Source: Eledone cirrhosa
Taxonomy: Eukaryota
Assembly: GCA_964016885.1 (NCBI GenBank)
Contig: OZ024745.1
Span: 85,746,001-85,810,000, forward strand
Direction: 5' to 3'
Length of the DNA stretch: 64,000 nucleotides
In this document: piece by piece, positions 33,574-63,936 of the stretch
How the letters are laid out: each line of letters opens with the position of its first letter
How positions within the stretch are numbered: position 1 is the first letter of the stretch
Notes under the pieces: generated by a model
What the model saw: the letters and a program-made list of their open reading frames with translations, nothing else
Database searches by the model: none
What the model was told of the DNA's origin: nothing
Made by a program: the position numbers and the translations under genes

Positions 33574-33723
33574 AGATTTGAATGGATACAGTTTAGTTGA
33601 AAGGAATTTATTGACACGTGTTTCTATAACAGTTACATAACCTAAAACAGCTATCTACAAACTTTTAGTTATGCAGACATTCAATATTTCAATGTTATTG
33701 TTTACTGTCATTTCATCATAACA

Positions 33724-35088
33724 ATGGGCTCTAACGATTCGGCGGAAATAACTGATATTGTGGGGTTATTTATCGCCTTTAGACTCCAGGAAAAATTCAG
33801 CAATCTCCACGGCGGAATATACCGCGACGATGTTCTCCTCCTAGCTAAAAACCTTAATAACCAAAAACTAGAAAAACTACGCAAAGATATAAGAAAACTA
33901 CTACTCGAAATAGGACTAACTATAACATATGAATACAACCTTAAAGTAGTTAATTTCCTGGATGTCACACTCAATTTAAACTCTGGTTTGATTAAACCGT
34001 TTCATAAATTGAATGAAAATCTCAAATACGTAAATGTTGGGTCTAACCACCCCATCTCTATAATTAAATCTATCCCTAAAAATATTTCCCTTAGAATCTC
34101 GGGTCTATCTTCGAACATACAAGTATTTAAGGAACACGCCGAGTACTACGATAACGCCCTTAGTAAAGCAGGCTACCTCAACAAAATAGAGTACATAGAT
34201 GGGAACAATCAAAACACCCAAAATAAATCCCACATAGGTAGATATAATAACACAACACCAAACCACACTTACTACCATAGTATGCACACCAGTAAACCAA
34301 CAAACAAAACTAATAGAAAGCGATGCAAAGAGTACTTATGGTATAACCCCGAATACAATAGCTCCATTAGTACAAATTTACCAGTACTCTTCTTTAAAAT
34401 AATTAAAAGACATTTTCCCACATCACACAAATACCACAAAATCCTAAACCCTACCACTATAAGACTGTCATACTCTACAGCGTTAAACCTTGAACAACAC
34501 ATAAAAAAGATCAATACTAGAAGGTTAAACGAAAACACTAAGAACTTAAGTACAAAGAACCCCAAAAAAACAGTAGACAATACACTACAGAACATAAATA
34601 AACCACACCTAAGTTCGTCCGCAATACTACTCCAGAGAAAACCCAACGTACACAACTGTAACTGCACCTATCCTGACAACTGCCCCCTCGGCAATAACTG
34701 CCTGGAAAAAAATATTATTTATAAGTGTACCATTAAATCCGGAGGCAACGAGTGGTATTACGTGGGATCAACGGCAACATCGTTTAAATCTCGATTGTAT
34801 AGGCATTCTTACTCAATAAAACACCAGAGCCAAAGAAATGTAACAACTTTAGCAGAGAAAGCTTGGACGCTCAGGGATAGCAATCAAAAGTTTACCCTAA
34901 AATGGGAAAAATTAGCTAAAACCCAAAGCTTTTCCAGGAGCCAAAATTTCTGCAAATTGTGTAATCTTGAGATTTATTACATAATCACACACAAGAAGAA
35001 ACTGCTGAATAACAGAATTGAAAGAACATTATTCTGCCGTCACAGAACTAAAACCCTTTTTTCCCACTACAAGCCGAATATTACATAA
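33724..35088 (+). CDS. PLE RT C-terminal half plus GIY-YIG endonuclease (uninterrupted but 5'-truncated)
   Basis: MGSNDSAEITDIVG, GIYRDD, FLDVTLNL, WYNPEY, CNCx5Cx5C, IIYKC..YVGSTATSFKSR, CKLC. Confidence 0.9.
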   Translation: MGSNDSAEITDIVGLFIAFRLQEKFSNLHGGIYRDDVLLLAKNLNNQKLEKLRKDIRKLLLEIGLTITYEYNLKVVNFLDVTLNLNSGLIKPFHKLNENLKYVNVGSNHPISIIKSIPKNISLRISGLSSNIQVFKEHAEYYDNALSKAGYLNKIEYIDGNNQNTQNKSHIGRYNNTTPNHTYYHSMHTSKPTNKTNRKRCKEYLWYNPEYNSSISTNLPVLFFKIIKRHFPTSHKYHKILNPTTIRLSYSTALNLEQHIKKINTRRLNENTKNLSTKNPKKTVDNTLQNINKPHLSSSAILLQRKPNVHNCNCTYPDNCPLGNNCLEKNIIYKCTIKSGGNEWYYVGSTATSFKSRLYRHSYSIKHQSQRNVTTLAEKAWTLRDSNQKFTLKWEKLAKTQSFSRSQNFCKLCNLEIYYIITHKKKLLNNRIERTLFCRHRTKTLFSHYKPNIT

Positions 35089-36297: not shown

Positions 36298-36508
<211 letters not shown>

Positions 36509-36514
36509 CATATA

Positions 36515-39115
36515 TTCACGAGAGAAATATCCAACCTGGGCGGCGGGCTGTACCGAGACGACGCACTCTTCACCGTAGTGGACCACAGCACCACAATGTT
36601 CGAAAATATGAAGAGGAGAATTAGGCACTTCTTTAGCAAGGTAGGGCTTAAGGTAGAGATGGAACCCAAGAGAAAATTAGTGTCCCACAGCGATAGGATT
36701 AGCTATAACCCTAAGGGACATGATCGAGATAACCCAAGGGTACCCCGGACCAATACTCTCAGAGGCATGAGTCGCCCACCTAATACCTCGGCGACCGGTA
36801 GTTACACTCCCAGACCCCTATCCGTAACCACACCCGGTAGAATGTCCCGCTTACGCCACCGGTCTAATACCTACAACGCTGAAGACCACTGTGCTGCGGA
36901 GCATAGGCACCCCTGCACCGGCCCCACCACCCGCCGAATCCTAACTGATCAGGGAGGCCGCACCTCACAGGTTTATAGCACCACGGTGGGCCTATATAAC
37001 CCTCATGATAGTGACCGCTCCGCACACCCAAGTGACACCAACCGAGCTCGACCTGAGCTGTGCACAACCACGCGATGGCCCACGGCGAGCACCCTACAAC
37101 CCCGCAAGAATAGGACCAGGAAGGTCACATGGTATAACCCTCCGTACTCGGTGGGTCTACGTACCAGCCTGGCTAGAACATTCTTTAGAGTACTAGATAT
37201 ATGTTTCCCTAGAGCCCATAAGTACCATAAAATATTCAACAGGCACACGGTGAAACTTTCCTACTCAACCACACGCTCCGTAGCCCAGCACATAGCTGGC
37301 ATAAATAGAAATAGGCTCACTGCCTCTAAGACCACCGTAAATCCCGGAGCTACCAAACAGAACCAGCACGCGGGACGCATCGGAACCCGGACAGGCCCAA
37401 CTAGCACACCAGAACTCAACGACCCTGTGCTGATTGCGGAGGCTACCCAGCCAACTCCGAGTGATGCTAACCACGCGGTACATGTGGTGGGGCTTAAGAA
37501 GTCATGTAATTGCAGAGACCCGTCGCTATGCCCCCTTAGTAATGAATGCATGACCAAAAACGTGGTCTATACAGGTGCACGGTCACAACCCCTAACTCGG
37601 AGCACCACTACATAGGATCCACAGCGACGAGCTTCAAAGCTCGGTGGTATAACCATCGCCATTCCTTTAACAGAATAGATAATAGGAAATGTACGACCCT
37701 TTCTGAACTGATCTGGAAGCTCAAACTTCAAAAGACCCCGCACTCTCTGGTCTGGTCCGTGGTTAGAAAGGTTCCCCCAGATAGTGGCGGGTCTGGTATT
37801 TGCAACCTCTGTCTTAGTGAGACACTCGAGATTCTTCATGGCGGAACCAAGCTATTAAACGGCAGGGCCGACTTATTCGGTGCCTGCAGACACCTAAGGA
37901 CGGGAAATTTCCTCAAGCTATATGGATAAACCCCGGTTACGACCTCCCCACCCCGTACCAATAACCAATGGACAACAACAACCACCCATGGTTTGCGGTC
38001 CTTATGATGGATGGTCCACCGGACCCTCGACTGGTTAGGAGTCATCTAAACAATGTTTTATTGAACCTGATTTTATATATATGTCTATATATGTATCATG
38101 TGTATATATATGTGTATTTTATATGTGTATGTATGCGCATTTTTTTATATATGTGTGCGTATCTGTATGTATATATTTTATATATATATGTGTGTATGTG
38201 TGTGTGTATTTTTTTATATATATGTATGTTTTACGTGTGTATATATTGTGTGTGTGTGTATTCTCTGTATATATATATTATTTTATATTTTTGTATGTAT
38301 ATATTTTATGTATGTGTATCTTCTGTGTATATATATATTTTATCTATATATATATATGTATGTGTGTGTATACTTGTGCGTACATGCATGCATGCATATG
38401 TATATATACACACCTGTATGGATTTGTATGTGTACATGTGTGAGTGTTTGAGGGGGTAGGTGTGAGTGTATGTACAAGTGAACCAGCATAAACCCTTTAT
38501 TTCTAAATTTTCTAAACTATCTAAGTATTGGACTCTAACCATTATATTAAGTATTACCACCCCATTTTTGTATGTGTGGAAGTGTGTGTGTGTCTGTGGA
38601 GGTGTGTGTGAGTGTAGTGGAAGCCAACCTACATAAGCCTTTTCATTTGTAAACTTTCTACTCCAACCATAATTTTCAGTATCCCCACTCCACATAAATT
38701 CCACAATTTAAGAATGACCTGTAGTATCTATATCATACTATTTACCGTATTTGAAAATATATCTGACCAAGAATGCCTTTTGTGAAAATCAGTCATGTGG
38801 AACAATTGTCATCTTGCCTGACGGTTTGAAACTTACAGAACCACCTGCCTCTTTGAGGTCAAATACCAACCTACTACCATCTACAAACTGACCAATGAGA
38901 ATCAAGACTATTCCTGCTGACAACATCAAAATATTCCTAACAAGCTCATATGTCCCAAGGCTCTGATACCATCAACACTATACAGAGAGCTGGCATATCT
39001 AAGAACTGACTACCTGCCTGATGAGGTCATAGCCATTCCATGGCTATCATCGAAATATATATAGCAGTAAATAAAGGATTATGAGTTCATGCAATTGACT
39101 TATGTTTCGTCACTA
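36515..39115 (+). mobile_element. 5'-truncated, internally deleted YRDD-type PLE with 3' UTR and HHR
   Basis: GGLYRDDAL near 36540, [47 protein letters not shown] (36578-37929, frameshifted). Confidence 0.85.
39014..39067 (+). ncRNA. Type I hammerhead ribozyme
   Basis: ctgc-CTGATGA-ggtcatagcca..tggctatcatc-GAAA-tatata-TA-gcag. Confidence 0.85.
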
Positions 39116-39515
39116 TATTATATATATCTATATATTATATATATTATATATATATTATATATATATATAACCATATATATATATAACCATTATATATATA
39201 TTATATATATATATTATCTATAAAAACAAATAACGAAACAAAATTAAATTTTGTTTCGTTTGTAACTCACTTTTGTATGACTGACGCTTAAACAATTAAG
39301 TTAAAGATGTACATCCATATATGTATACTGAAATACTAGTATGTATATGAATACACACACGTATACATATGTAGATGTACCAAGTTTTTTCACTGGTCAC
39401 TTTACTGTGAGTGGCCAGCTATTCTGTATGTAAACACACAGACAAACCGGTTTTTAGAGTCATACTGGTTTTTGAGGAAACACCTTTCCTCTATTCTCCA
39501 GAAAGCCAGACAAGG

Positions 39516-39560
39516 AATATTGAACTAGTTTCGTTGTTGTTACAACTCATCAGCAATATT
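39516..39560 (-). ncRNA. Type I hammerhead ribozyme in each 467-bp unit (39516+467n, n=0-9; plus-strand copies at about 44240-44284 and 44707-44751)
   Basis: aatattg-CTGATGA-gttg-taacaa-caac-GAAAC-TA-GTT-caatatt; 7-bp stem I, 4-bp stem II, palindromic AACTAGTT stem III. Confidence 0.88.
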
Positions 39561-39645
39561 TACCTATCTTCCGGCCTCTCTAGAGAATCGTAAAAGCACA
39601 TATCGTTATATGCTTTTTCTATGAAAATTAGTAGTGGGCAGACTA

Positions 39646-39653
39646 ATTTGCAT
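39646..39653 (-). promoter_or_regulatory. Octamer motif ATGCAAAT in every unit, about 86 nt upstream of the HHR; also at 46467-46474
   Basis: Exact octamer conserved at the homologous position in two diverged repeat families; function is inferred. Confidence 0.5.
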
Positions 39654-42600
39654 AGAGTGTGAGTAAGTACCGGTTCAACGGAGACGATAAAAACAAATAA
39701 CGAAACAAAATTAAATTTTGTTTCGTTTGTAACTCACTTTTGTATGACTGACGCTTAAACAATTAAGTTAAAGATGTACATCCATATATGTATACTGAAA
39801 TACTAGTATGTATATGAATACACACACGTATACATATGTAGATGTACCAAGTTTTTTCACTGGTCACTTTACTGTGAGTGGCCAGCTATTCTGTATGTAA
39901 ACACACAGACAAACCGGTTTTTAGAGTCATACTGGTTTTTGAGGAAACACCTTTCCTCTATTCTCCAGAAAGCCAGACAAGGAATATTGAACTAGTTTCG
40001 TTGTTGTTACAACTCATCAGCAATATTTACCTATCTTCCGGCCTCTCTAGAGAATCGTAAAAGCACATATCGTTATATGCTTTTTCTATGAAAATTAGTA
40101 GTGGGCAGACTAATTTGCATAGAGTGTGAGTAAGTACCGGTTCAACGGAGACGATAAAAACAAATAACGAAACAAAATTAAATTTTGTTTCGTTTGTAAC
40201 TCACTTTTGTATGACTGACGCTTAAACAATTAAGTTAAAGATGTACATCCATATATGTATACTGAAATACTAGTATGTATATGAATACACACACGTATAC
40301 ATATGTAGATGTACCAAGTTTTTTCACTGGTCACTTTACTGTGAGTGGCCAGCTATTCTGTATGTAAACACACAGACAAACCGGTTTTTAGAGTCATACT
40401 GGTTTTTGAGGAAACACCTTTCCTCTATTCTCCAGAAAGCCAGACAAGGAATATTGAACTAGTTTCGTTGTTGTTACAACTCATCAGCAATATTTACCTA
40501 TCTTCCGGCCTCTCTAGAGAATCGTAAAAGCACATATCGTTATATGCTTTTTCTATGAAAATTAGTAGTGGGCAGACTAATTTGCATAGAGTGTGAGTAA
40601 GTACCGGTTCAACGGAGACGATAAAAACAAATAACGAAACAAAATTAAATTTTGTTTCGTTTGTAACTCACTTTTGTATGACTGACGCTTAAACAATTAA
40701 GTTAAAGATGTACATCCATATATGTATACTGAAATACTAGTATGTATATGAATACACACACGTATACATATGTAGATGTACCAAGTTTTTTCACTGGTCA
40801 CTTTACTGTGAGTGGCCAGCTATTCTGTATGTAAACACACAGACAAACCGGTTTTTAGAGTCATACTGGTTTTTGAGGAAACACCTTTCCTCTATTCTCC
40901 AGAAAGCCAGACAAGGAATATTGAACTAGTTTCGTTGTTGTTACAACTCATCAGCAATATTTACCTATCTTCCGGCCTCTCTAGAGAATCGTAAAAGCAC
41001 ATATCGTTATATGCTTTTTCTATGAAAATTAGTAGTGGGCAGACTAATTTGCATAGAGTGTGAGTAAGTACCGGTTCAACGGAGACGATAAAAACAAATA
41101 ACGAAACAAAATTAAATTTTGTTTCGTTTGTAACTCACTTTTGTATGACTGACGCTTAAACAATTAAGTTAAAGATGTACATCCATATATGTATACTGAA
41201 ATACTAGTATGTATATGAATACACACACGTATACATATGTAGATGTACCAAGTTTTTTCACTGGTCACTTTACTGTGAGTGGCCAGCTATTCTGTATGTA
41301 AACACACAGACAAACCGGTTTTTAGAGTCATACTGGTTTTTGAGGAAACACCTTTCCTCTATTCTCCAGAAAGCCAGACAAGGAATATTGAACTAGTTTC
41401 GTTGTTGTTACAACTCATCAGCAATATTTACCTATCTTCCGGCCTCTCTAGAGAATCGTAAAAGCACATATCGTTATATGCTTTTTCTATGAAAATTAGT
41501 AGTGGGCAGACTAATTTGCATAGAGTGTGAGTAAGTACCGGTTCAACGGAGACGATAAAAACAAATAACGAAACAAAATTAAATTTTGTTTCGTTTGTAA
41601 CTCACTTTTGTATGACTGACGCTTAAACAATTAAGTTAAAGATGTACATCCATATATGTATACTGAAATACTAGTATGTATATGAATACACACACGTATA
41701 CATATGTAGATGTACCAAGTTTTTTCACTGGTCACTTTACTGTGAGTGGCCAGCTATTCTGTATGTAAACACACAGACAAACCGGTTTTTAGAGTCATAC
41801 TGGTTTTTGAGGAAACACCTTTCCTCTATTCTCCAGAAAGCCAGACAAGGAATATTGAACTAGTTTCGTTGTTGTTACAACTCATCAGCAATATTTACCT
41901 ATCTTCCGGCCTCTCTAGAGAATCGTAAAAGCACATATCGTTATATGCTTTTTCTATGAAAATTAGTAGTGGGCAGACTAATTTGCATAGAGTGTGAGTA
42001 AGTACCGGTTCAACGGAGACGATAAAAACAAATAACGAAACAAAATTAAATTTTGTTTCGTTTGTAACTCACTTTTGTATGACTGACGCTTAAACAATTA
42101 AGTTAAAGATGTACATCCATATATGTATACTGAAATACTAGTATGTATATGAATACACACACGTATACATATGTAGATGTACCAAGTTTTTTCACTGGTC
42201 ACTTTACTGTGAGTGGCCAGCTATTCTGTATGTAAACACACAGACAAACCGGTTTTTAGAGTCATACTGGTTTTTGAGGAAACACCTTTCCTCTATTCTC
42301 CAGAAAGCCAGACAAGGAATATTGAACTAGTTTCGTTGTTGTTACAACTCATCAGCAATATTTACCTATCTTCCGGCCTCTCTAGAGAATCGTAAAAGCA
42401 CATATCGTTATATGCTTTTTCTATGAAAATTAGTAGTGGGCAGACTAATTTGCATAGAGTGTGAGTAAGTACCGGTTCAACGGAGACGATAAAAACAAAT
42501 AACGAAACAAAATTAAATTTTGTTTCGTTTGTAACTCACTTTTGTATGACTGACGCTTAAACAATTAAGTTAAAGATGTACATCCATATATGTATACTGA

Positions 42601-44975
42601 AATACTAGTATGTATATGAATACACACACGTATACATATGTAGATGTACCAAGTTTTTTCACTGGTCACTTTACTGTGAGTGGCCAGCTATTCTGTATGT
42701 AAACACACAGACAAACCGGTTTTTAGAGTCATACTGGTTTTTGAGGAAACACCTTTCCTCTATTCTCCAGAAAGCCAGACAAGGAATATTGAACTAGTTT
42801 CGTTGTTGTTACAACTCATCAGCAATATTTACCTATCTTCCGGCCTCTCTAGAGAATCGTAAAAGCACATATCGTTATATGCTTTTTCTATGAAAATTAG
42901 TAGTGGGCAGACTAATTTGCATAGAGTGTGAGTAAGTACCGGTTCAACGGAGACGATAAAAACAAATAACGAAACAAAATTAAATTTTGTTTCGTTTGTA
43001 ACTCACTTTTGTATGACTGACGCTTAAACAATTAAGTTAAAGATGTACATCCATATATGTATACTGAAATACTAGTATGTATATGAATACACACACGTAT
43101 ACATATGTAGATGTACCAAGTTTTTTCACTGGTCACTTTACTGTGAGTGGCCAGCTATTCTGTATGTAAACACACAGACAAACCGGTTTTTAGAGTCATA
43201 CTGGTTTTTGAGGAAACACCTTTCCTCTATTCTCCAGAAAGCCAGACAAGGAATATTGAACTAGTTTCGTTGTTGTTACAACTCATCAGCAATATTTACC
43301 TATCTTCCGGCCTCTCTAGAGAATCGTAAAAGCACATATCGTTATATGCTTTTTCTATGAAAATTAGTAGTGGGCAGACTAATTTGCATAGAGTGTGAGT
43401 AAGTACCGGTTCAACGGAGACGATAAAAACAAATAACGAAACAAAATTAAATTTTGTTTCGTTTGTAACTCACTTTTGTATGACTGACGCTTAAACAATT
43501 AAGTTAAAGATGTACATCCATATATGTATACTGAAATACTAGTATGTATATGAATACACACACGTATACATATGTAGATGTACCAAGTTTTTTCACTGGT
43601 CACTTTACTGTGAGTGGCCAGCTATTCTGTATGTAAACACACAGACAAACCGGTTTTTAGAGTCATACTGGTTTTTGAGGAAACACCTTTCCTCTATTCT
43701 CCAGAAAGCCAGACAAGGAATATTGAACTAGTTTCGTTGTTGTTACAACTCATCAGCAATATTTACCTATCTTCCGGCCTCTCTAGAGAATCGTAAAAGC
43801 ACATATCGTTATATGCTTTTTCTATGAAAATTAGTAGTGGGCAGACTAATTTGCATAGAGTGTAAGTACCGGTTCAACGGAGACGATAAAAACAAATAAC
43901 GAAACAAAATTAAATTTTGTTTCGTTTGTAACTCACTTTTGTATGACTGACGCTTAAACAATTAAGTTAAAGATGTACATCCATATATGTATATGTACAT
44001 CCATATATGTATACATATATGGATGTACATCTTTAACTTAATTGTTTAAGCGTCAGTCATACAAAAGTGAGTTACAAACGAAACAAAATTTAATTTTGTT
44101 TCGTTATTTGTTTTTATCGTCTCCGTTGAACCGGTACTTACACTCTATGCAAATTAGTCTGCCCACTACTAATTTTCATAGAAAAAGCATATAACGATAT
44201 GTGCTTTTACGATTCTCTAGAGAGGCCGGAAGATAGGTAAATATTGCTGATGAGTTGTAACAACAACGAAACTAGTTCAATATTCCTTGTCTGGCTTTCT
44301 GGAGAATAGAGGAAAGGTGTTTCCTCAAAAACCAGTATGACTCTAAAAACCGGTTTGTCTGTGTGTTTACATACAGAATAGCTGGCCACTCACAGTAAAG
44401 TGACCAGTGAAAAAACTTGGTACATCTACATATGTATACGTGTGTGTATTCATATACATACTAGTATTTCAGTATACATATATGGATGTACATCTTTAAC
44501 TTAATTGTTTAAGCGTCAGTCATACAAAAGTGAGTTACAAACGAAACAAAATTTAATTTTGTTTCGTTATTTGTTTTTATCGTCTCCGTTGAACCGGTAC
44601 TTACTCACACTCTATGCAAATTAGTCTGCCCACTACTAATTTTCATAGAAAAAGCATATAACGATATGTGCTTTTACGATTCTCTAGAGAGGCCGGAAGA
44701 TAGGTAAATATTGCTGATGAGTTGTAACAACAACGAAACTAGTTCAATATTCCTTGTCTGGCTTTCTGGAGAATAGAGGAAAGGTGTTTCCTCAAAAACC
44801 AGTATGACTCTAAAAACCGGTTTGTCTGTGTGTTTACATACAGAATAGCTGGCCACTCACAGTAGAGTGACCAGTGAAAAAACTTGGTACATCTACATAT
44901 GTATACGTGTGTGTATTCATATACATACTAGTATTTCAGTATACATATATGGATGTACATCTTTAACTTAATTAT

Positions 44976-45502
44976 ATTATCTATATTATATATTATATAT
45001 ATATTATATATATTATATATTATATATTATATATATATATATATATTAAATATATTATATATATATTATATATATATTATATATATATATTATATATAAT
45101 ATATATATATATATATAATTACGGGGGTCGATAAAATAAAGTACCAGTAATACACTGGGATAATTTCTGGCCTTGTGCCAATAGTAAAAACAATTATATA
45201 TATATTATATTTATATATTATATATATTATATATATATTATATATATATTATATATATATATTATATATATATTATATATATATTATATATATATTATAT
45301 ATATTATATATATATTATTTATATATATATTATATACATATTATATATTATATATATATTATATATATATATATTATATATATATATTATCTATATTATA
45401 TATTATATATATATTATATATATTATATATTATATATTATATATATATATATATATTAAATATATTATATATATATTATATATATATTATATATATATAT
45501 AT

Positions 45503-45533
<31 letters not shown>

Positions 45534-45950
45534 ATTACGGGGGTCGATAAAATAAAGTACCAGTAATACACTGGGATAATTTCTGGCCTTGTGCCAATAG
45601 TAGAAACAATTATATATATATTATATTTATATATTATATATATTATATATATATTATATATATATTATATATATATATTATATATATATTATATATATAT
45701 TATATATATATTATATATATTATATATATATTATTTATATATATATTATATATATATTATATATTATATATATATATTATATATATTATATATTATATAT
45801 ATATTATATATATTATATATTATATATTATATATATATATATATATTAAATATATTATATATATATTATATATATTATATATTATATATATATTATATTT
45901 ATATATAATATATATTATATATATATTATATATATATTATATATATATAT
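44976..45950 (+). repeat. Tandem duplication of about 416 bp: SINE 3' fragment (45121-45195, 45537-45612) plus degenerate TA sequence
   Basis: Near-identical ORFs at 45175 and 45591. Confidence 0.75.
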
Positions 45951-46093: not shown

Positions 46094-46805
46094 CGGAAAA
46101 AATGAAGCAAAATTTTATTTCCCACTCTTAGTAAGGCTGTTACTTAAATATAAGTATGTACACGTACATACATATATGTATACAGACTTACAGTAGTATG
46201 TATATATATATACATACATGCACACATATATATATGTACCGTATGGATTCACTGAACATTTATTATAATGCTCGGTGAGGTTTGTAAACAAACATCCCGC
46301 AATAAGCCGTAGTGTCCAGCAACCATCGTTGCTCGTTTGTTCAACACTGACAAAGGAACGCTGTACTAGTTTCAAGCTTATTAGCTATCGTCAGCAACGT
46401 ATACCTTCCTGCCAGATAGTTGAACGTATATACTTACCTTATGCATATTAACAGCTGAGAAGCCCAATTTGCATATCGAGTGGGTTAATCGGCCGGGTGC
46501 ACCGAAAACGATAAACGGAAAAAATGAAACGAAATTTCATTTCTCACTCTTAGTACGGCTGTTACTTAAATATAAGTATGTACACGTACATGCATATATG
46601 TATACAGACGTACAGTAGTATGTATATATATATACATACATGTACACATATATATATGTACGTATGTTTACAAACACACCGAGCATTATAATAAATGTTC
46701 GGTGAATCCATACGTACATATATATATGTGTGCATGTATGTATATATATATACATACTACTGTACGTCCGTATACAAATATGTATGTACGTGTACATACT
46801 TATAT
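46094..46805 (-). mobile_element. Second retrozyme-like family: 422-bp unit, 1.35 copies plus terminal inversion (46665-46805)
   Basis: Unit start cggaaaaaatgaa at 46094 and 46516; HHR and octamer present; (TA)n flanks. Confidence 0.82.
46358..46400 (-). ncRNA. Type I hammerhead ribozyme (422-bp family)
   Basis: acgttg-CTGACGA-t-agct-aata-agct-t-GAAAC-TA-GTA-cagcgt. Confidence 0.82.
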
Positions 46806-47530
46806 ATATATTATATATATTATATATATACATATTATATATATTATATATATATATATTATATATATTATATATATATTTTATATATTATATATATATT
46901 ATATATTATATATATATATTATATATATTATATATATATATATCATATATATTATATATATATAGTATATATTATATATATATATATTATATATATATAT
47001 TATATATATATATATATTATATATATATATATATTATATATATTATATATATATATTATATATATATATTATATATATTATATATATATTATATATATTA
47101 TATATATTATGAATATATATATTAAATATATATTATATATATTATATATATATATTATATATATTATATATATATATTACATATATATTATATATATATA
47201 TAATATATATACTATATATATATATTATATATATATATTATATATATTATATATATATTATATATATATATTATATATATATATATTATATATATATATA
47301 TATATTATATATATATATAATATATATATATATAATTATATATATATATTATATATATATTATATATATTATATATATATATATTATATATATTATATAT
47401 ATATATTATATATATATTATATATTTTATATATATATTATATATATATATATTATATATATATATATATTATATATATATAATATATATTATATATATAT
47501 TATATATATATATTATATATATATTATATA
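46806..47530. repeat. Long degenerate (TA)n microsatellite; similar tracts include 761-821, 4354-4622, 25847-26405, 28330-28597, 31220-31725, 36301-36512, 53200-53728, 57400-58298
   Basis: Directly visible. Confidence 0.95.
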
Positions 47531-49652
47531 AAACGCAGGGGAAGGAATAGAAGACGTGATAGTACCTTCTTTAACCCGCCCTTCAACTCTAATGTTACTA
47601 CAGACCTCCCCAAATCTTTTTTCTTTTTAATAGATAAGAACTTCCAGGTTTTAGGTACGGTAGTGTCATCAATAAGAATACTATCAAGCTATCGTACTCA
47701 ACAACCCCTAATCTGGCCTCTCACCTAGCTAAGACCAATAAGAGTAAGATTAAAGAGGGACTTAAGGCCATCCGAAATAGTGAACCACGCCAGTACACAC
47801 GACAACACGGGACCAACCCACTGAGTGAAAGACCCAGGGGGATAACAGGCAATAGAACCGGTCCCAATAGGCAGCCCCGCGGCTGCTTGGAGGGACATGC
47901 ACCCATGATTGAGGAGCATGACCCTATTAAAAAGTGTAATTGCAGAAGGAAGGACAAATGCCCACTAGCTGGACATTGCCTTATTAGGAGCGTGGTATAT
48001 GCTTGTAACGTAACCACAGACACGTATACTAAGACGTATGTGGGATCAACCGCTAACCAGTTCAAGACGAGATTCAACGCCCACCAGAATAGCTTCCGGT
48101 ATGAGAAGCTTAAAAATACCACGTCGTTAGCGGGGCACATACATAACTTAAAACAAACAAAAACCCCCTACACACTAAGCTCCTCCATATAGCTCGTTGA
48201 GCAGGTTTTGTAGCTTGTGCCTATCTCAATCTCATGCCATAGTATTCTCAGGACTCAAATTGCTCAACAGGAGATCAGAAATCTTCTCGTCCTGCCCCCA
48301 TACTATACTTAGCTCTTTCTTTTTCTTCAGACCAGACACATATCCCTGACACCACCCTGTCCCTCACTTGGCGGCCCCGCTGGCGAACCGGGTGCTCTTT
48401 AGTAACCCCGGCCGCATTGATGCCTCGGCTCCCCGATTGCCGATGGGGACTCTGGTGAGGAACAGACGACCCTGTGTCCCACTTGGCAACTTGGGATTGG
48501 TGGCAGCATTGTTGCTGGGCACCCTGGGGGCAGCTGATGCCTGCGTGTAGGACATTGTGAGTGCCTGGACCCACGTTGACTAATCTGGGAAGGTGCCGTC
48601 GGAGATGTATGTCAGCAAACTCGGGAACATGCCCAGGGAAACAGTAACAAAACACCCAATATGGTGGCCGCTCCCTGCCTATAACCAATCAACCCCCGCC
48701 CCCTCCTCTAGTAAACCCCCGCCCAAATAGATGCCCCTCCCCATTCTCCCCCACTCACTTCTTTTGAGTTAGTTCTTCTTTATTATTAGTGATTAGTTCT
48801 TTAATAATAGGGATTTTTTTATATTTTACCACAGTTGACTTAATGGGCTTGGAGAGTTGACTCCCTTGATGTCTGACCAGTCGATAAGTCAGGGGTTGTG
48901 CCCCTTGAACAGGGGTGTGTCTAACTGGTCTACCTGCTGTCTGCTACTACGCGAGACCGGACACGGTCGTAGCCACAGGCCAGCGCGTGCGCGATAGCAT
49001 AGAATATATATTTTCTGCTAGTCACCCCGTGTAATATGATACCCCAAGATTCCATGCATGAGATTCACCGAAGCATGCGCAGTCTTAACCGGGAGATGAC
49101 ATGCGAACTTGAAAATACCACAAGAAAGACCCTTTGGATAGCGTAGACGCCGGACCATACCCGAAAATATATACCCTGATCTGTCTTGAATATACAGGGC
49201 TGACAGAATATGGATAACACGACCACCATCTAAGCTGGAACCGACCCATACAGCAAACAAAGAGGGGACAGCCCTTCGCATTTGACCAGTCGCGTGTAGG
49301 CTTGGAGTTCGTAGTACACCACCCCAGTCAAATCCACACTGGTTTTTTTACCAATATAGCATGTAGACCAATACATCCTATGTAGCGAGACCTTGGATTT
49401 AGAACCGGCAGGCTGATCTATCGCAAGCGCGTGCAACCCCCAAAACTAAAAGATCGAACGGACCACACCCAGCAACCACTAGCTATTTGATCCACAGGTA
49501 CATTTCCCAGAGAGTCCACACAGCTGATAGTGAATCACAGTTGATCCGTGGACTATGAACTTTTAAACAAGACCAACTGTGCCTGGAGCTATGCAGATGA
49601 CTACATACGCATAATGGATATCGCACCCACAAGGTCACCAGTACTGTTCATC

Positions 49653-51390: not shown

Positions 51391-51573
51391 TGTTTCTACT
51401 TTAGGCACAAGGCCAGCAATTACCCAGTGCATTACTGGTACTTTATTTTATCGACCCCGTAAGGATGAAAGGCAAAGTCAACCTCGGCGGGATTTGAACT
51501 CAGATCGTAAAGGGACGTAACTATGCTGGAAAGCATGGCGTCCGACCCTCTACCGATACTGCCAATCCACCGC
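51391..51573 (-). mobile_element. Full-length tRNA-derived SINE with an imperfect target-site duplication of about 18 bp
   Basis: A box TGGCAGTATCGG, B box GAGTTCAAATCC; flanks gctgtcttcacaaataat / gctgtgttcagaaataat. Confidence 0.88.
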
Positions 51574-53005
51574 TGTGTTCAGAAATAATGATATTTGTTT
51601 ATTGAAAAAAAGCAACAAAGATTTAATATAATTGGTCTGTTTGGGAACAGGTTTTGAATTGACCAATAGAAAAGTAGTAAGTGGTCAAGTTGATAGAATA
51701 GTAGTAGTAGAAATTTAATTTAGGGGTAGAGGAATGCAGAATTAAGTTTTAAATGGAAAGAATACTTTGAATGAAAAGATTACTTTGGGGATGAAAAGAG
51801 GTCAAGCCGTTGAAAGGTACACGAAAATTTGATGTTATTAAAGAATAATGCTAGTGTTAAAATCGAAGGAGAATAAAATTTTAGGGTAAATGCGTTAGTG
51901 AGAAATACCGATCTTATTTAAAATACAAGGAATTTAGATCTATAACAAGAAATTAAATTAATTTAATTGATAGGTATACTTATAGGGATAAATTTATATT
52001 AATTCATATAGATGTGATAAATAAGAGTTAGATGTTATTAAAGAATGTTGTTAAAAACGAAGGAAAAAATTGTTCGGGATAAATGTATTAGTGAGAAATA
52101 ACAAACTTATATATACTACAAGGAGTTTAGATTCATAACATGAAATTAAAATAGTTTATATGTATTCTTGTCGCTTATTTAATAGGATATCCTTAGATTT
52201 CATTATCCTTAGATTAATATCCTATTAAATAAGCGACAAGAATTAATTATATCGTGCAATCATAGAATTAGAAGAACTTTCAAATATTATAAACCTAATT
52301 AATATGCACCATACACTTATATTTTACAAATTATTATAATTAGTTTTTTTAATTTAGGTAACCTATAATTAGTATTTTACTACTGAGAACTTCATAATTT
52401 TATTTCCCTTTTACAGCTCTCTTTTCCTAAAATTAATACCTATAAGTATACATATAAACTATTTTAATTTCCTGTTATGAATCTAAATTCCTTGTAGTAT
52501 ATATAAGTTTGTTATTTCTCACTAATACATTTATCCCCTCAAAAAAATATTTTTATTTTGTTAACAACATTCTTTAATAACTCTTATTTATCACATCTAT
52601 ATGAATTAATATAAATTTATCCCTATAAGTATACCTATCAATTAAATTAATTTAATTTCTTGTTATAGATCTAAATTCCTTGTATTTTAAATAAGATCGG
52701 TATTTCTCACTAACACATTTACCCTAAAATGTTATTCTCCTTCGAGCATTATTCTTTAATAACATCAAATATTCGTGTACCTTTCACCGGCTTGACCTCT
52801 ATTCATCTCCAAAGTAATCTTTTCATTCAAAGTATTCTTTCCATTCAAAACTTAAGTCTGCATTCCTCTACCCCCAAATTAAATTTCTACTACTACTATT
52901 CTATCAACTTGACCACTTACTACTTTTCTATTGGTCAATTCAAAACCTGTTCCCAAACAGACCAATTATATTAAATCTTTGTTGGTTTGTTCAATAAACA
53001 AATAA

Positions 53006-54982: not shown

Positions 54983-57400
54983 TAAGATCAAAAGATGGTT
55001 AAAAGTGTTCCAAGTATTTTATTATGCGCATTTCAAAAACAAATATAATCATGGGATGATATTTGTGTTCTCATCTGATAAAATATGGAGACATGATATG
55101 AAGCTTAAAAAACACTTGCGAGCTGTGAAGTGTTAAATCAACATATGAAAAATAAAGTAAGATGGATATATTAGATTGGGAAAAAAGAAGGGGTGGGGGT
55201 TGAAAAAGTAAGGAAGAGGATGAAAGAAAATAAAGGATGACGGGGGAGGAGTATAAGAAGGAAGGATGAGAGAGGAGGAGGTGATAGAGAGAGAGAAATA
55301 GCCTTTACAATTGAGAGAACATTGTCTCACAGAGAAATTAAAAAACCGTTGAAAGATAATGGATAATTTAAAAGGAATTTGAAATTAAAAGTTAATGAGG
55401 TTTATGAATGGTCATGTTTCTGAATTAAGAAAAAGAAATTTATTTATTTAAGGTTTATATATTGAAGGGTTTAATAATATGTGCGAAAAAAAAGAATTTA
55501 TTAATATGTATTATTAAAATTAATATATTAAGGATATTAAGGATATAATATGAAAGAATGAGAGATTGAATGAATTATGAACTTAGAGGAATTAGTTAGG
55601 GTTTAAGTTTGTTTTTATGTATTGTAATATGTAAAAGTAAATAATAGGTTTAATGCGAGTACGGAAGGAGAGAAGAAAGAAGAAAATTTAAGAAAGAAAA
55701 AATATCTAACGTCAAAAAGTATATATGTTTACAAAATTTTCTAATGGTAATATTATTATATATTAAAACAGATATAGTTTCTATGGCCAATAATATAAGG
55801 AAAAATGGAAAATTGGAAAATGCCATAGTGAGTAATAATATGAATTAAGAAGTAATTTAGAAGTAAAAGTTACAGATTAAAGATTAGAAATTAAAAAAGA
55901 AAAAAGGAAGAAAGGAAAAAGGATAAAAAGAAGAAAGATAGGGGACCTCTAACAACATAGAATGAGTAAATTGTATAATATAATATACTGAAATAGGGTA
56001 GAAAGATGGGTATATTTGTAAAAGATATAAAAGCCTTTGAGAAAAGAAGATTTTAAACTAATTAGGTATTGAGATATTAGCTGTATACTTTATGGAAAGT
56101 TCTATGGGATTTATGCAAGCAGAGCGAAAATAAATCCGTACGTCTATTTATTATAGAATAAAATTAGATATAATGGTAAATTTTTCGGCTAGGCAGAGAT
56201 TACATCTTCTGGATAGGGAAGAATTCCGGTAAGGAAAGGCGTTGCAAACCTTCCTCCAAGAAATGTTATAGTTAATATTTTTGTCTTTGAAGGACCATAT
56301 GAGTTCCGAGAGTGCAGTGTTAGTTCTTTTAAGTTGGTATTTAAAAGACGATTTGTGATTATAAAATCTTGCTTTAAAGGAAGTGGAAGTGGAACGGAAT
56401 AGATAAAAGAATTAGTACCAGTTATAACCTTATATTCATACACTAGGTTTTTATCAAGACATTGGTTATTAAGAGGACATTTAGTTCTAACAGGGCAATT
56501 ACAATTAGGATTAGAGAAATTAACAGAATTATTAACAAGTGACCTAGTATTATTTATAGAAGGAATTTTATTGGAGAAGTTATTTACGATAGGAACTATA
56601 GTTTCCTGATTTAGATTGGTGTTATGAACATTCATCGAGGTTACGTTTAACGTCGTATTTAAATTTACTGAATCTAGCCTAGAGTTAACATTGACGTCGG
56701 GTTTTACTATTGCTATTATTATGACGCTCAGTGTTGGATGGATATAATTTATTATTTAATATTTTATTATTGTGTTTAGAGATAATGTAAGAGATGTTGG
56801 AAGTGGTGGAATAAGAGAATTTCATTGTATGTTTGTTAAAGATGTTACTATAGATATGCGAGGGAGGGAAGCATTTATCTAAGGCCCTAAAGAATAGTTT
56901 AGGAATATTATTAGTAATAGATAGAGAAAAAGGAGCATTATACCAAATCATATTTTTGTATCTAGGTCTTTTATTTAAGTTATTGGAATGTTCGCAATTA
57001 ACTATTTTACTATAAGTCCTTCGATGATTGGTTTCTTTACTGTATTTAATTTTCTCAGGATAACCGGCTTTGGAAAGCGCATTATTATAGTAATTGGCAT
57101 TAGCGTCGAAGATAATTTTATTATAGGATAGATTTGAGATTCTTTTTTCCGTATTACTGACTAGAGCATGTTTAACGTTAGTGGGGTGGTTAGATTTAAA
57201 ATTAACATAAATTAGATTCTCATTGTCTTTATAGTAAGGGTAATATAGGCCAGTGTCAAGGTTAAGGGATATATCCAGGAAGTTAGCTAGTTTGACGTTG
57301 TTATCAAATTCAATTTTAATGTTATGGTGCTTAAATAGATGAAGTATATTGTTCTTAATAATATTAAGGTTAACTAAGTTACAGTTTAAGACAGTAAAAA
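54983..57400 (-). mobile_element. 5'-truncated YRDD-type PLE (coding remnant 56077-57400) with 3' UTR
   Basis: NFLDISLNL, SNHP, IWYNAPFS, CNCPVRTKCPLNNQC, LVYEY; frameshifted. Confidence 0.85.
55015..55085 (-). ncRNA. Type I hammerhead motif with CAGATGA core variant
   Basis: tattttat-CAGATGA-gaacacaaatat..atatttgtttt-t-GAAA-tgcgca-TA-ataaaata. Confidence 0.68.
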
Positions 57401-57413
57401 TATATATAAATTA

Positions 57414-58299: not shown

Positions 58300-58300
<1 letters not shown>

Positions 58301-58920
58301 GTAACACCAAATCCGTTGTTTATGAGGCCAGAGTGACACCTTTAATCAACAACCAACCAGCCAGGTGTGAGCGATATTATGGCATGACCCAGGACAGGTT
58401 TAAAACCAGGTTATATGCACATGTTGCTTCTTTTAAGCACTCCGATAAACGAACAGCAACGGCCCGCGCAAGTAAGGTGTGGGAATTCAAGGATAAAAAC
58501 ATCCCGTACTCTATCGATTGGTCTATTTTAGACCATTCGCGGGAGTACCAAAGGGGCACAAAGAATTGTTCTTTCTGTACCACAGAAAAATATAGGATTT
58601 TGCCAAACTTAAAAGCCACTTCTGCTTGCCTGAACTCAATGACCGAGATCTTCAGATGTTGTCCTCATCTGAAATCACATCTGATCTGTAACTGGATTGA
58701 CATTCCTATAACTCAACCACCTTGAACTCCTTTTCTGCTCTTTACTTCCACTACGGTTTTTTTACCTGCTGAATCCACGTTCTGTACTCTCGTATTCTCT
58801 TTCTCCCTTATCTCCACTTATATTTAAACCTATTCCTATGTCATTTATTTCCCAATTTTCCCCCCTACCTTCTGCCTTACCCTTCACATACCAAATTTTT
58901 TTTATTTTTTATTTTTAGAT
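58300..58920 (+). mobile_element. PLE GIY-YIG endonuclease fragment (to 58725) plus 3' UTR start
   Basis: SVVYEA..YYGMTQDRFKTRLYAH, CSFCTTEK, LNSMTEIFRCCPH. Confidence 0.82.
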
Positions 58921-59590: not shown

Positions 59591-62500
59591 CGGCGATGAA
59601 TTAGTTTAGCGAGGTTTTTTATATGAAATCGTGTGTCGAAACAGATATTGTTATACTTGGGGAGGGTCATATTTGCGTAATATTGCCAGAATTAATAACA
59701 GAACACACTCACTGTTTGGTTGACTCTCCCCAAGTATAACAATATCTGTTTCGACACACGATTTCATATAAAAAACCTCGCTAAGCTAATTCGTCGCCGC
59801 TACGGCATTAGCTTGTGCCAAACTGAAAGGTTATTGAAAGACACTGTTTTCTGTTATATAAAAACTACAATAACAACAGAACAAATCCGCTTCTTAAAAC
59901 ACTGTGTTTCCTCCAAAACATACACAACAAACATATCAAAACAAGTAAATAATTTATTATTGAACAAAACACAAGCCGAACGGCTAAAACACACAATAAC
60001 AGTTAATATGAAAAGAACAACATACACAAAAGTCAACGCACTCTACAGACAGAAACGCATCAACGGTAAGGAAATCCGAAATCTCATCACAGCAAACGAG
60101 AGAGATGACTTCATGAGCGTCATCCGACGCGAAACGAAATACGCTCGAAACGAATGCTATAGGCATTTCAAGAAGAAATTAGAATGGATGAATAAGAGAA
60201 AACTACAAGAAAGGAAAATCGAATATTCTCAAAAATACCCAGATAACATCGATAATATCCGTATGACTGATGTAAAACTACCGGAAGAATTTACCAATGA
60301 CCACACAGTAAATATCTATGGGAACACTTTAATCAGTGAACAAGAACAACAAATCCTACGGTTACCACCAAAATTTGCCATCTACAAAAAGATTAACCCT
60401 ATGGAATGCAAAACGGAGCTGGAAAAGTGTTTCACAAAAATACGTTGGAATGCAAAGGTAAACAACAACAACAATAATAACGGTAGTAGTAATATAAACA
60501 ATAACTCTGGGTATAGAAATAACAGCCATAACCATAACAATGGCAGGAAAGTGAGAAATAGTGATAATGGCAATAATACTAGCGATAGACGGAACAACAA
60601 CCACAATAATAATAATAATAGAAACGTTAACCACAGACACAGCAACAGTGACCACAGTAGTAATAACGGTAACAATACGAACAACAACAACAATAACCAC
60701 AGTGGTAATAATGGAAATAGTACATGTAGCAACATCAACAAAAACAAGAAACATAATAATAGTAACAACCACAATGGTAGAAATAACAGTAACAACAACA
60801 ACAATAACGGTGAAGTAAACAACAATACATCTAGCAATCATAACAATAATAATAAGGCTAATGATAGAAACAACAACAACCACCCCGATAACAACAATAG
60901 CAACACACACAACTATGACGATAGATACAATGACAACCCCTTAGATATATATGTTTATATTACTACTACCGTTATTATTGTTGTTGTTGTTTACCTTTGC
61001 ATTCCAACGTATTTTTGTGAAACACTTTTTCAACCCAGCTGACAAAACATATAAGATGGGTAATATCTATCCTACGAGGTTACCCTTTAATAAAAGAGTT
61101 TGCATACCACAGCAAATAGATGACGAGACGGAGGCACAGTTCACCATAGCTAGAAATAAGATTAGACAAGTAGTAGACAGGTATACTAAGAGACAGAGCG
61201 GACCAGAGGCCCAACAACTTGGGAGAAAACCTGTAGAAGGCTTGGTTAGCCTCAAGCAGCGCACAAGGGATGGTGAGGTAGTGTGTCTACCCACAGATAA
61301 GTCTGGTAGGATGTCAATAGATAGCATGCCGAACTACATCGAGGCTATGAAACCCCACATCACCAACACGAGCGAAGTTGCACAACAAACACACGATGGG
61401 AGAGAAAAAATCCTCAACGCTCACATGATGATGTGGACTGACATCCTAATGCCAAGCAGACGCACTGCCAACAACTTCCAGGCGTCTAACAATGGCATAC
61501 CACCCTTGTATGGGCTCCGCAAAGACCACAAGACAGTCGACGACCCGACAACAGGCCACCAACAAGACCCGTATGCGGAGCTAATATAGCTAGCAACTAC
61601 AGGATTTCCTACTTCCTCTCAATGGTTATACGCCCCATAATCAAGATGTCCCCAGATGTATGTGAAAGTACAGAGGACCTCCTCAGCAGAATCAGTGAGT
61701 GCAACAAAAACAGGAGCCTATCCAACTGCATAATAGGCAGCATGGATGTGGTGTCACTGTACCCATCCATTAACATTGATTTTGCTGTGAAAAGATGTGT
61801 GGAGATGATCATTGAGAGTGAGGTGGAGTTCTGCGACGTCGACACAGACGAACTGGGCCTCCTACTTAGACTTACCTACGACACTGACTACCTAGACAGC
61901 CATGACCTTAGATGTTTCTGCCCTAGTAGACCTATAAGAAGTAGACCCCCCACCATAACCTCAATGGCAAAAAAGACTCCCATAGGAAGATGGATTGGGT
62001 GGACCAAAGCTATACGGACCCCCCAAAACACTGATCAGGTAAGAAAAATGGTCGCACATGCAATAGGGGCTAGTATCAAAACTACCCTAAAGGGCCACAT
62101 ATTTAAGTTCAATGAGAAAATCTACACCCAAAATGAGGGAGCAGCCATCGGCGTCAGCATAGCTGGTGATGTTGCCAACCTTTTCATGGTATGGTGGGAA
62201 AGGAGACTTAAAGATCTCCTTAATGAAAGCTCCATAGACCTCATCATGTACTCTCGTTATGTAGACGATATCAATATAGTTATAAGAACACCCCCACTAG
62301 AGAGCACTAACATGTTTGATTTAGAACGTAGCACGATGGAAAGCATCCAGCAGATAGCTAATTCCATACACCAGAGTATAACTGTAACTATCGACTTCCC
62401 TTCCAAACACCCTAAACAATAGACTATCTGTATTAGACACAGAACTCTGGATTAACACTATAGACGAGAGAGCCCAAATTCTCCACTCACACTATGCTAA

Positions 62501-63936
62501 ACCCATGGCCTCCAAATACCTGATACTCAAAAACTCAGCAATGTCCAGTAGTGCTAAGTTTAATATTCTGATCGCAGATTTGGTACGAGTGATGAAGAAT
62601 GTGTCCAGCATGTGCGACCCAACAGAAATGGAAAGACACATCCAACACTTCATCAACCGCATGCAGTTCTCTGGCTACAACCAAAGAGACAGAGTCAGAG
62701 TATACGAAGGAGCCATGGAAAAGTATAAGACCCTCATAAAACTGGACATGAAAGGAATTTGCCCATTATACAGGAGCAAATCATGGAATAGCTTAGATAG
62801 GGCTAGACATAAGATAGGGAAAGCCACATCATGGTACGACAACCAGAGATACTAGAGTGTCATGTTTGTGGACGCCACCCCTGGAGGGAAATTAGCTAAC
62901 CAGTGTAGAAAGGCCTTGAGAAAGACCCACTTAAAAATCAAGGTGGTAGAAAAGCCAGGAACCACCATAAAATCCCTGATCAGCAAAACCTACCCTTTTA
63001 AGAAAACCCACTGTACCAATAGGAAATGTATCATATGTAAGGTGAACCCCCGGATAAACTGTAAAACTAGAAACGTAGTCTATAGCATAAGATGTACAGA
63101 GGGTACTTGCAGAAACATGACAACAACATACATAGGTGAGACAGCTCGTAGCATAGGTGAAAGGATAGACCAACACTGGGGGGAACTAAAAGGACGAAAA
63201 AACGGGTCAGTACTATACGAACATGCTAGACAACAACATGACGGTAACATAGACAACATAGAAATTAGAATAATATCTAAACATAGGAATGACCCAGCAG
63301 ATAGGCAAATCAGAGAGACCAGTGAAATAGAAATTAGAAGACCAAAGCTAAACAGAAAGAATGAGTGGAACAAAAACAACACCCAAACAAACAACACTGA
63401 CCTAAGAGAAGTATAAATAAGTAAATAAATAAAATAAAATAAAATAATATAATAAAATAAAATAAGATAAATAAATACATACACAAGCACAATAACAACA
63501 AGCACATAAACACACACTAGTCACCCAGCAGACACAACACTATACACACTAAATAAATAAATAAATATATAGACAGACTGAATAAAAAAATGGCGTAGAC
63601 ATACAACACAACAGGAGGAAAAAATATAACACAACAGGAGGAAAAAATATAACACCACTGACGATGTTGCAGATGTACAACGAAAGATTTATGTAAATTA
63701 TGTAAACTATATATATGTGTTTGTGTCTATATTGTGTCTGTATTATTTTTGACCATCGGTCAGTCAATGGCAACATTGCGGACCGAGTAAGTTAGATCGC
63801 AGATATAAAAGACAGCGAGAAGCGAAAACCAACCAAACAATGAGTGTGTTCTGTTATTAATTCTGGCAATATTACGCAAATATGACCCTCCCCATATATA
63901 TATATATTGTTAGACTTGGGGAGGGTCATGAGAGGG

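Follow-up and report, generated by a model that had tools for sequence, protein, structure and literature searches.

The window analysed here, a stretch of 64,000 nucleotides from the 3.0-Gb assembly of Eledone cirrhosa, is rich in (TA)n and in fragments of Penelope-like open reading frames. At 46094-46807 it carries a 422-bp repeat in which, on the minus strand, the octamer ATGCAAAT stands ahead of a hammerhead motif, and this raises the question of what class of element the repeat belongs to and what the octamer does in front of a ribozyme. A sequence-only reading had taken 46094-46805 as a single unit and as a diverged sister of a 467-bp repeat in the same window. The segment instead resolved into one unit, an upstream copy truncated at its 5' end and a piece in inverted orientation, and the features on which the rest of the analysis draws are as follows.

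46094..46510, minus strand: complete retrozyme unit as inserted, with predicted promoter block, hammerhead, body and terminal hairpin; period 422 bp
46456..46476, minus strand: 21-nt element like the proximal element of host type 3 Pol III promoters, including ATGCAAAT at 46474-46467
46427..46432, minus strand: TATA box-like TATATA, 42 nt after the octamer start
46402..46402, minus strand: predicted transcription start, by inference only (TATA + 30, T|A)
46358..46400, minus strand: type I hammerhead core, predicted cut between 46364 and 46363
46335..46425, minus strand: extended stem I domain, fold -28.5 kcal/mol, z = -2.97, 0/200 shuffles
46097..46102, minus strand: T6 run, a possible terminator for Pol III, within the terminal hairpin and a few nt short of where the insertion ends
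46511..46665, minus strand: upstream copy of the 3' part of the unit, truncated at its 5' end and 94% identical to the full unit
46661..46807, plus strand: middle part of the unit in inverted orientation, overlapping by 5 nt at the switch
39220..43993, minus strand: 467-bp unit of the sister family in 10.2 copies, with 9 identical full monomers
44009..44973, plus strand: inverted 2.1 copies of the 467-bp unit

Anatomy of the 422-bp unit and its 467-bp relative

The order of blocks that had been proposed for the minus strand was found in full, namely the octamer at 46474-46467, the hammerhead at 46400-46358 (GAAAC-UA-GUA), ttcctttgtc and the terminal hairpin. The ggaag..ggta and ttcctttgtc blocks pair with each other and lie within the extended stem I domain (46335..46425). 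The insertion site is (TA)n, and the 3' end of the unit continues into (TA)n. Copies 97-99% identical to this unit occur on many contigs, and 422-type monomers are 420-434 bp long when measured from cut to cut; the two halves of the copy in the window differ at 6 of 77 sites, which is above average. No coding frames beyond microsatellite-derived ones were present in the repeat units of the window.

The hammerhead combines stem I ACGUUG/CAGCGU (one U.G pair) with CUGACGA, a UAAUAA loop II, GAAA and a stem III of 2 bp inside the palindrome ACUAGU. Stems I and II had been said to differ from those of the 467-bp unit and yet to remain paired, which is correct for stem I but only partly so for stem II, where three Watson-Crick pairs are preceded by a U.U mismatch at the opening, as in the axolotl HHR_Amex2 (PMC7229834). 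In 13 variants, hand-chosen as subfamily types from the 422, 430, 484, 467 and 310 families, 92.3% of cells were paired and 8 of 12 pairs had changed on both sides, with slid controls at 20-45%; the variants are mutually related and a shuffle count is hence no probability. The base of stem II was unpaired in 11 of the 13, and the catalytic core and a UAAYAA-type loop II were retained. An Rfam search of the window gave zero matches at the gathering score, and the ribozyme call therefore rests on motif, fold and covariation. A palindromic stem III of two base pairs favours dimer cleavage by precedent (PMC7229834), and by this analogy the stem III of the predicted 422-type ribozyme would do so as well.

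Metazoan non-LTR retrozymes are a known class (Cervera and de la Pena 2020, PMC7229834), in which each unit of a tandem is a few hundred bp long, low in GC and equipped with one type I hammerhead; they are present in thousands of copies, stably folded and accompanied by Penelope-like elements in the same genome. The 422-type repeat has all of these properties: every unit carries an intact type I hammerhead core, the tandem units fall in the range of ~150-450 bp, are low in GC and lack a coding frame, the copies are dispersed, numerous and marked by the hallmarks of retrotransposition, and Penelope-like elements are found in this genome too. The repeat is almost certainly a non-LTR retrozyme with a predicted hammerhead.

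Its identity to the 467-bp unit (array GC 0.34) had been judged to be slight. In fact 292 of 412 aligned bases are identical (71%; 61% of columns), and the two units are collinear and homologous over their whole length (z = 19.5 for whole units, 0/1000 dinucleotide shuffles as high). Similarity above that of shuffled controls extended beyond the hammerhead core (z = 17.5 without the hammerhead, again 0/1000 dinucleotide shuffles; z = 8.3 for the octamer block). Of 22,330 copies chosen by their flanks only, the first 100 included 88 with an intact octamer, and 8 of the 12 variants came from one array, so that the expected conservation in other family members was borne out; however, because the units are so similar overall, conservation between the 422 and 467 families alone shows no selection on the octamer. 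The 422 and 430/484 subfamilies are set apart by an indel of 8 nt, which falls 3' of the TATA box and leaves the octamer-TATA spacing at 42. Pieces of the family were also seen in contigs of two other organisms, among which the single contig that spans the octamer keeps it (depth <5, not counted).

The two inserts had further been thought to begin at homologous positions. This applies to the usual end of the 422 family (TTTAT, then (AT)n) but not to the copy here, which ends 4-5 nt short of the end of the 467 array. With covarying hammerheads, dispersed copies and fixed 3' ends, the two are indeed members of one mobile RNA class, both being non-LTR retrozyme families. Selection on a functional RNA, the proposed explanation for the conserved blocks, agrees with the compensatory changes in the hammerhead, but the octamer is more likely a DNA element of a host U6-class promoter. 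A further 467-family array (G000:C1:5738326-5752443) contains ~31 hammerheads and a terminal inversion, and in its stem II, compared with the array in the window, a U-A pair is replaced by A-U through compensatory change.

Copy number, insertion ends and the copying enzyme

With exact hammerhead patterns the 422/484 clade reached 26,739 matches and the 467 family 7,847, with 0 in the control for each, and a generic pattern gave 62,180 against 4,013 in the control (~58,000 above control) and exposed the 310-bp family. Among the 30 best-matching loci, 26 were longer than one unit and 11 contained an inverted piece. The 3' ends were fixed: counted by eye, 42 of 44 in the 422 clade lay at or within ~5 nt of TTAT and continued into (AT)n (36 at TTAT or a variant and 6 a few nt earlier, including the window copy; the remaining 2 rows were not ends), and the same was true of 7/7 ends in the 467 family. 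A second TTAT end, 55 nt upstream, was the site for most of 31 further rows, nearly all of which run into (AT)n. Target-site duplications are unreadable because the insertion ends lie in (TA)n. The hammerhead cut does not coincide with the insertion ends, and upstream partial copies extend past it, an arrangement that fits internal priming on a circle or multimer. Neighbouring units of a locus agreed at 108 of 124 polymorphic cells compared with 2280 of 3600 (63%) between loci, as expected from repeated copying of one monomer. A linear template derived from one master dimer was considered and rejected, with no recurring differences between upstream and downstream units.

Penelope-like elements form partial tandems and 5' inversions, have a (TA)n bias and two alternative ends (PMC8557442, PMC11167929), and their reverse transcriptase (RT) uses two internal start sites (PMC11167929). 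The 422 family resembles them in its partial tandems, its inverted 5'-truncated copies and its preference for (TA)n (PMC8557442, PMC11167929, bioRxiv 10.64898/2026.07.22.740005), and likewise in having two alternative 3' ends, in keeping with internal RT initiation (PMC11167929). It is unlike them in having no ORF and a canonical rather than a minimal hammerhead, and its ends show TTAT/(AT)n microhomology whereas the anole Penelope element starts at non-homologous sites. Taken at the level of the element, the fixed internal 3' ends, the inversions and the (TA)n targets support Penelope-driven copying of a circular template, and a Penelope-type partner is quite probably the copying enzyme. Pfam found RVT_1 in one of seven ORF fragments from the window (E 1.8e-5) and GIY-YIG in none; Atlas look-alikes of the fragments at 0.94-0.98 carry HTH_animal, RVT_1 and GIY-YIG, and CxC and GIY-YIG-like motifs were read by eye in the window ORFs. 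In a comparison with the 8 Penelope-type hammerhead neighbourhoods of the window only, no pLTR homology of the retrozyme units was found (z <= 4.8, 60 mononucleotide shuffles); pLTR homology has been reported for 24/57 Xenopus retrozyme families.

At least six broken Penelope-like RT/GIY-YIG ORF fragments from different families lie within 30 kb, and there are minimal hammerhead-like motifs of the Penelope pLTR type (GAAA-TATATA-TA), some in inverted pairs, that end in (TA)n:

33646-35088, 36500-37930, 47638-48192, 56189-57410, 58300-58725, 59699-63416: Penelope-like ORF fragments
568, 9019, 16119, 24285, 25476, 54445, 54628, 31118, 39018: minimal pLTR-type hammerhead-like motifs

Two of the minimal motifs are accompanied, ~115 nt upstream on the opposite strand, by TATGCAAATTAG, which may be a coincidence. 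Copies of U6 and U6atac without a promoter (L134-L138, L095, L096, L099, L100) were also seen, several directly behind (TA)n, which suggests that small RNAs have been retrocopied into this target too. The (TA)n tract of the window also holds a short SINE-like repeat of dispersed type (45117-45196, 45534-45613, 51396-51580), a copy of which interrupts the promoter of some members of a U6 array (L049, L050).

The octamer block and the host's small-RNA promoters

The reference for the octamer block was the genome's own set of small-RNA genes, of which seven promoters were judged genuine. These belong to three distinct U6 genes, the top U6atac match, MRP and both tRNA-Sec genes, and all have TATG[CG][AT]AAT[TG]AG at -76 to -79 and a TATA box at about -30. 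Left out were 4 of 10 printed U6 and 5 of 6 U6atac matches without the element, judged from their flanks to be retrocopies, and one U6 gene split by an insertion; array duplicates were merged. The 14 U1/U2/U5 promoters (two near-duplicate U5 promoters were dropped) have AATTA at -89, TCAGT at -56 and TATA at -30, and the Pol III element is absent from them. A distal motif, TTAC[CT]TCCCTT near -265, is common to Pol II and Pol III snRNA genes and absent from U6atac and tRNA-Sec. The proximal Pol III element is absent from the RNase P RNA gene as well (L140, G000:C24:12936134); this gene resembles the Pol II snRNA genes in its strong TCAGTGG and may be transcribed by Pol II.

A 21-nt matrix built from the seven host promoters gave 22.8 bits for the 467 unit, 20.1 for the 484 unit and 15.7 for the 422 unit. 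The host promoters themselves scored 13.4-25.6 bits when left out one at a time and the U1/U2/U5 promoters <= 4.8, so that the three young families fall within the host range (15.7-22.8 bits). Shuffles scored as high in 0/200 cases for the 467 and 484 units and in 1/200 for the 422 unit, and none of 182,896 background positions reached 16 bits. The motif identity with the host promoters continues past the octamer into the host's TAG-N3-NCC, where the 422 copy in the window has TGG in place of host TAG or GAG, and a TATA box follows downstream (TATATA, 46432-46427). This arrangement of a gene-external upstream element and a TATA box is that of type 3 Pol III promoters (U6, H1, MRP, tRNA-Sec; PMC6004067, PMC11340601). 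It is unlike them in lying inside a mobile unit, in an octamer-TATA spacing of 41-42 nt in the 422, 484 and 467 families, 4-6 nt shorter than the 46-48 nt of all seven host genes, and in having no distal motif, TTAC[CT]TCCCTT being absent from the sense strand of these three families. The 310-bp family has no Pol III element (4.2 bits).

The main reason for reading the block as a promoter came from a search that used the element and the TATA box with no ribozyme information and found old families that nevertheless carry a hammerhead. The pattern gave 387 matches against 20 in the control. We read 43 loci, 23 distinct ones from the first 30 matches and 20 picked by hand for host-like spacing and a non-422 sequence; setting aside 6 that were 422-like and 4 whose spacing differed left 33. 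A hammerhead-like core lay at +85 to +120 in 15 of these 33 non-422 loci with host spacing, compared with 0/33 upstream and 0/33 antisense, and stood ~28 nt behind the predicted start. The 15 represent one family, A, in 12 cases, a group B in 2 and a third group in 1. Family A has 2,199 candidates at 82-87% identity, with partial tandems and inversions, and group B has 11 matches at 70-80% identity; neither shows significant homology to the 422 unit (z <= 3.9). In both, the octamer-TATA spacing is 47-48, as in the host, and a pyrimidine-purine step occurred at TATA + 30 in 6 of 8 loci (one with a misassigned TATA). An Rfam search of 16 promoter-match loci gave zero matches.

The unit of family A (L157, L159, L172, L173, L199-L203, L216-L226) is ~345-360 bp long with exactly the host Pol III spacing; a T6-T7 run directly follows its hammerhead, and it has two 3' ends ~35-40 nt apart. 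Very old groups (L164, L169, L174, L205-L214), at 70-80% identity, combine the element with TATAAATA at the host's spacing, and their hammerhead is decayed.

From its sequence, the octamer block of the 422 family is predicted, with reasonable confidence, to be active as a promoter, and Pol III is favoured over Pol II. For the transcription of animal retrozymes, this defines a candidate promoter from the same genome's own genes, within a fragment of 110 bp.

Proposed cycle, rival readings and known systems

On balance, we read the 422-bp repeat as a non-LTR retrozyme whose octamer and TATA block likely works as a built-in host U6-class (type 3 Pol III) promoter. Transcription would start ~30 nt after the TATA box (~46402), shortly before the hammerhead; Pol III, terminating leakily, is the most likely polymerase. 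Where a locus exceeds one unit, a polymerase that reads on beyond the T-run would come to the next hammerhead, and two cuts would then release an RNA of unit length with the promoter sequence near its 3' end. A host ligase (RtcB, by precedent) would circularise this RNA. The nick in (TA)n would come from a Penelope-like RT/GIY-YIG protein, which would begin to copy from the fixed internal TTAT ~35-40 nt upstream of the octamer. One full round would rebuild the promoter together with the transcribed part, and more rounds would give arrays. In such a cycle the retroelement would keep a gene-external promoter, which ordinary retrocopies lose.

The same retrozyme and promoter block might recruit Pol II, or both polymerases, with the short spacing as a reflection of this; we think this unlikely, though it deserves some weight. 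Every monomer contains T5-T7 runs, at which Pol III would need read-through to yield a unit-length RNA and which Pol II would pass, even in long identical arrays. The first T4+ run lies 290-354 nt from the predicted start, near the end of the element, and the depletion of T-runs in the first 290-350 nt was not significant (P 0.06-0.20). A spacing 4-6 nt short of the host Pol III genes points the same way, as do newt satellite 2, cited as transcribed by Pol II from an snRNA promoter, and the Pol II activity that mouse and human type 3 H1 promoters have (PMC11340601). The 484 unit, too, scored 14.9 on the host Pol II three-element model (9/150 shuffles as high). The element itself, however, is confined to Pol III genes (7 promoters, compared with 0 of 14 for Pol II), and the old families retain the exact Pol III spacing. 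A Pol II-type promoter in the 422 unit, seen by eye from TCAGC 25 nt before TATA, was rejected with 11/150 shuffles as high. On the three-element model the 467 unit had 32/150, and all three units stayed below the host range of 17.6-29.1; a 73-nt Pol II matrix proved too weak on the host genes themselves.

A reading to which we give a little less credence, and which is also unlikely, takes the block in the young families as a relic of an ancestral promoter or as a strand of a hairpin, transcription being by host read-through as in the general retrozyme model. Metazoan retrozymes seem promoterless according to a review (PMC7761336), the 310-bp family spreads without the element, the host's octamer-TATA spacing is broken in the young families, and with units 71% identical the conservation of the block is unremarkable. 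In the 422, 484 and 467 families alike the octamer is paired in an RNA hairpin (mean 0.84-0.86), and the TATA box also lies in a palindrome, so that RNA structure could be the cause of the block's retention there; in family A the octamer lies outside any stable hairpin (pairing 0.25-0.50). Against this, the octamer strand stays constant while its partner differs (ATATGC vs TTTTC), with different mismatches, the match reaches beyond the octamer to the host's TAG-N3-NCC, and the spacing is held among the young families, where indels fall behind the TATA box. Amplification of a satellite or MITE-like repeat at the DNA level, with ribozyme and octamer incidental, would suit the long near-identical arrays and the palindromic arrangements, but it is very improbable given one fixed end, variable 5' ends, 5' inversions, (TA)n targets and a strand-specific covarying hammerhead, and is largely refuted because the ends are asymmetric.

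Retrozymes are already known, and so are repeats that join a promoter to a hammerhead, in schistosomes and newts; what is likely new is the probable U6-class promoter in a retrozyme. The promoter of the schistosome hammerhead repeat is gene-internal and of the tRNA type (A/B box), and that of newt satellite 2 reportedly includes an octamer. Rfam identified no tRNA in the window. The schistosome SINE-like repeats have a promoter and then a hammerhead, the 5' unit drives the next, and Pol III transcribes them (PMC6765202, PMC2220036). The 422 unit is similar in placing a promoter, here predicted, ahead of the hammerhead in tandem units, but it matches a gene-external U6-class element with a TATA box whereas the schistosome Pol III promoter is internal. 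The unit of newt satellite 2 (Coats et al. 1994) combines a hammerhead with a promoter of the snRNA type and is described as transcribed by Pol II, whereas the 422 motif matches the type 3 Pol III genes but does not match the U1/U2/U5 promoters of the same genome. PMC7229834 describes no promoter for its retrozymes; in the 422 family the candidate promoter block is of host type, the 3' ends are internal and fixed, 5' inversions occur, and insertion targets (TA)n. In a 2026 preprint on retrozyme origin (bioRxiv 10.64898/2026.07.22.740005) the words 'promoter' and 'octamer' are absent from the main text. No report of a U6-class promoter in a retrozyme was found in the open literature covered; the supplements of PMC7229834 and of the preprint may contain mollusc families or motifs relevant to this.

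A broader view, which we hold tentatively and to which we give slightly less than even credence, is of a long-lived retrozyme class with at least four sequence groups of different age that share the order of U6-class promoter, start and hammerhead. It would have seeded tens of thousands of working U6-type promoters, with the young families marked by shortened spacing and by altered polymerase use or terminator read-through. If this is true, circularisation together with a fixed internal RT start would permit a gene-external Pol III promoter, which is impossible for linear retrocopies.

The 310/311-bp retrozyme family (L113, L115, L125; G000:C1 1.24, 5.39 and 5.54 Mb) has a stem III palindrome ACGCGT and no octamer. 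The host distal snRNA motif, ATTACTTCCCTTG, lies right after its cut, and AATTT-33-CCAGT-27-TATAA is spaced as in U2; the spacing fitted a Pol II-type promoter by eye, but this candidate was rejected with a score of 7.6 and 68/150 shuffles as high. The unusual grammar of snRNA promoters in this genome was read from loci L031-L064, L133 and L139-L150, and as a by-product the U6-class and U1-class promoter motifs of this animal are available for use in guide-RNA expression.
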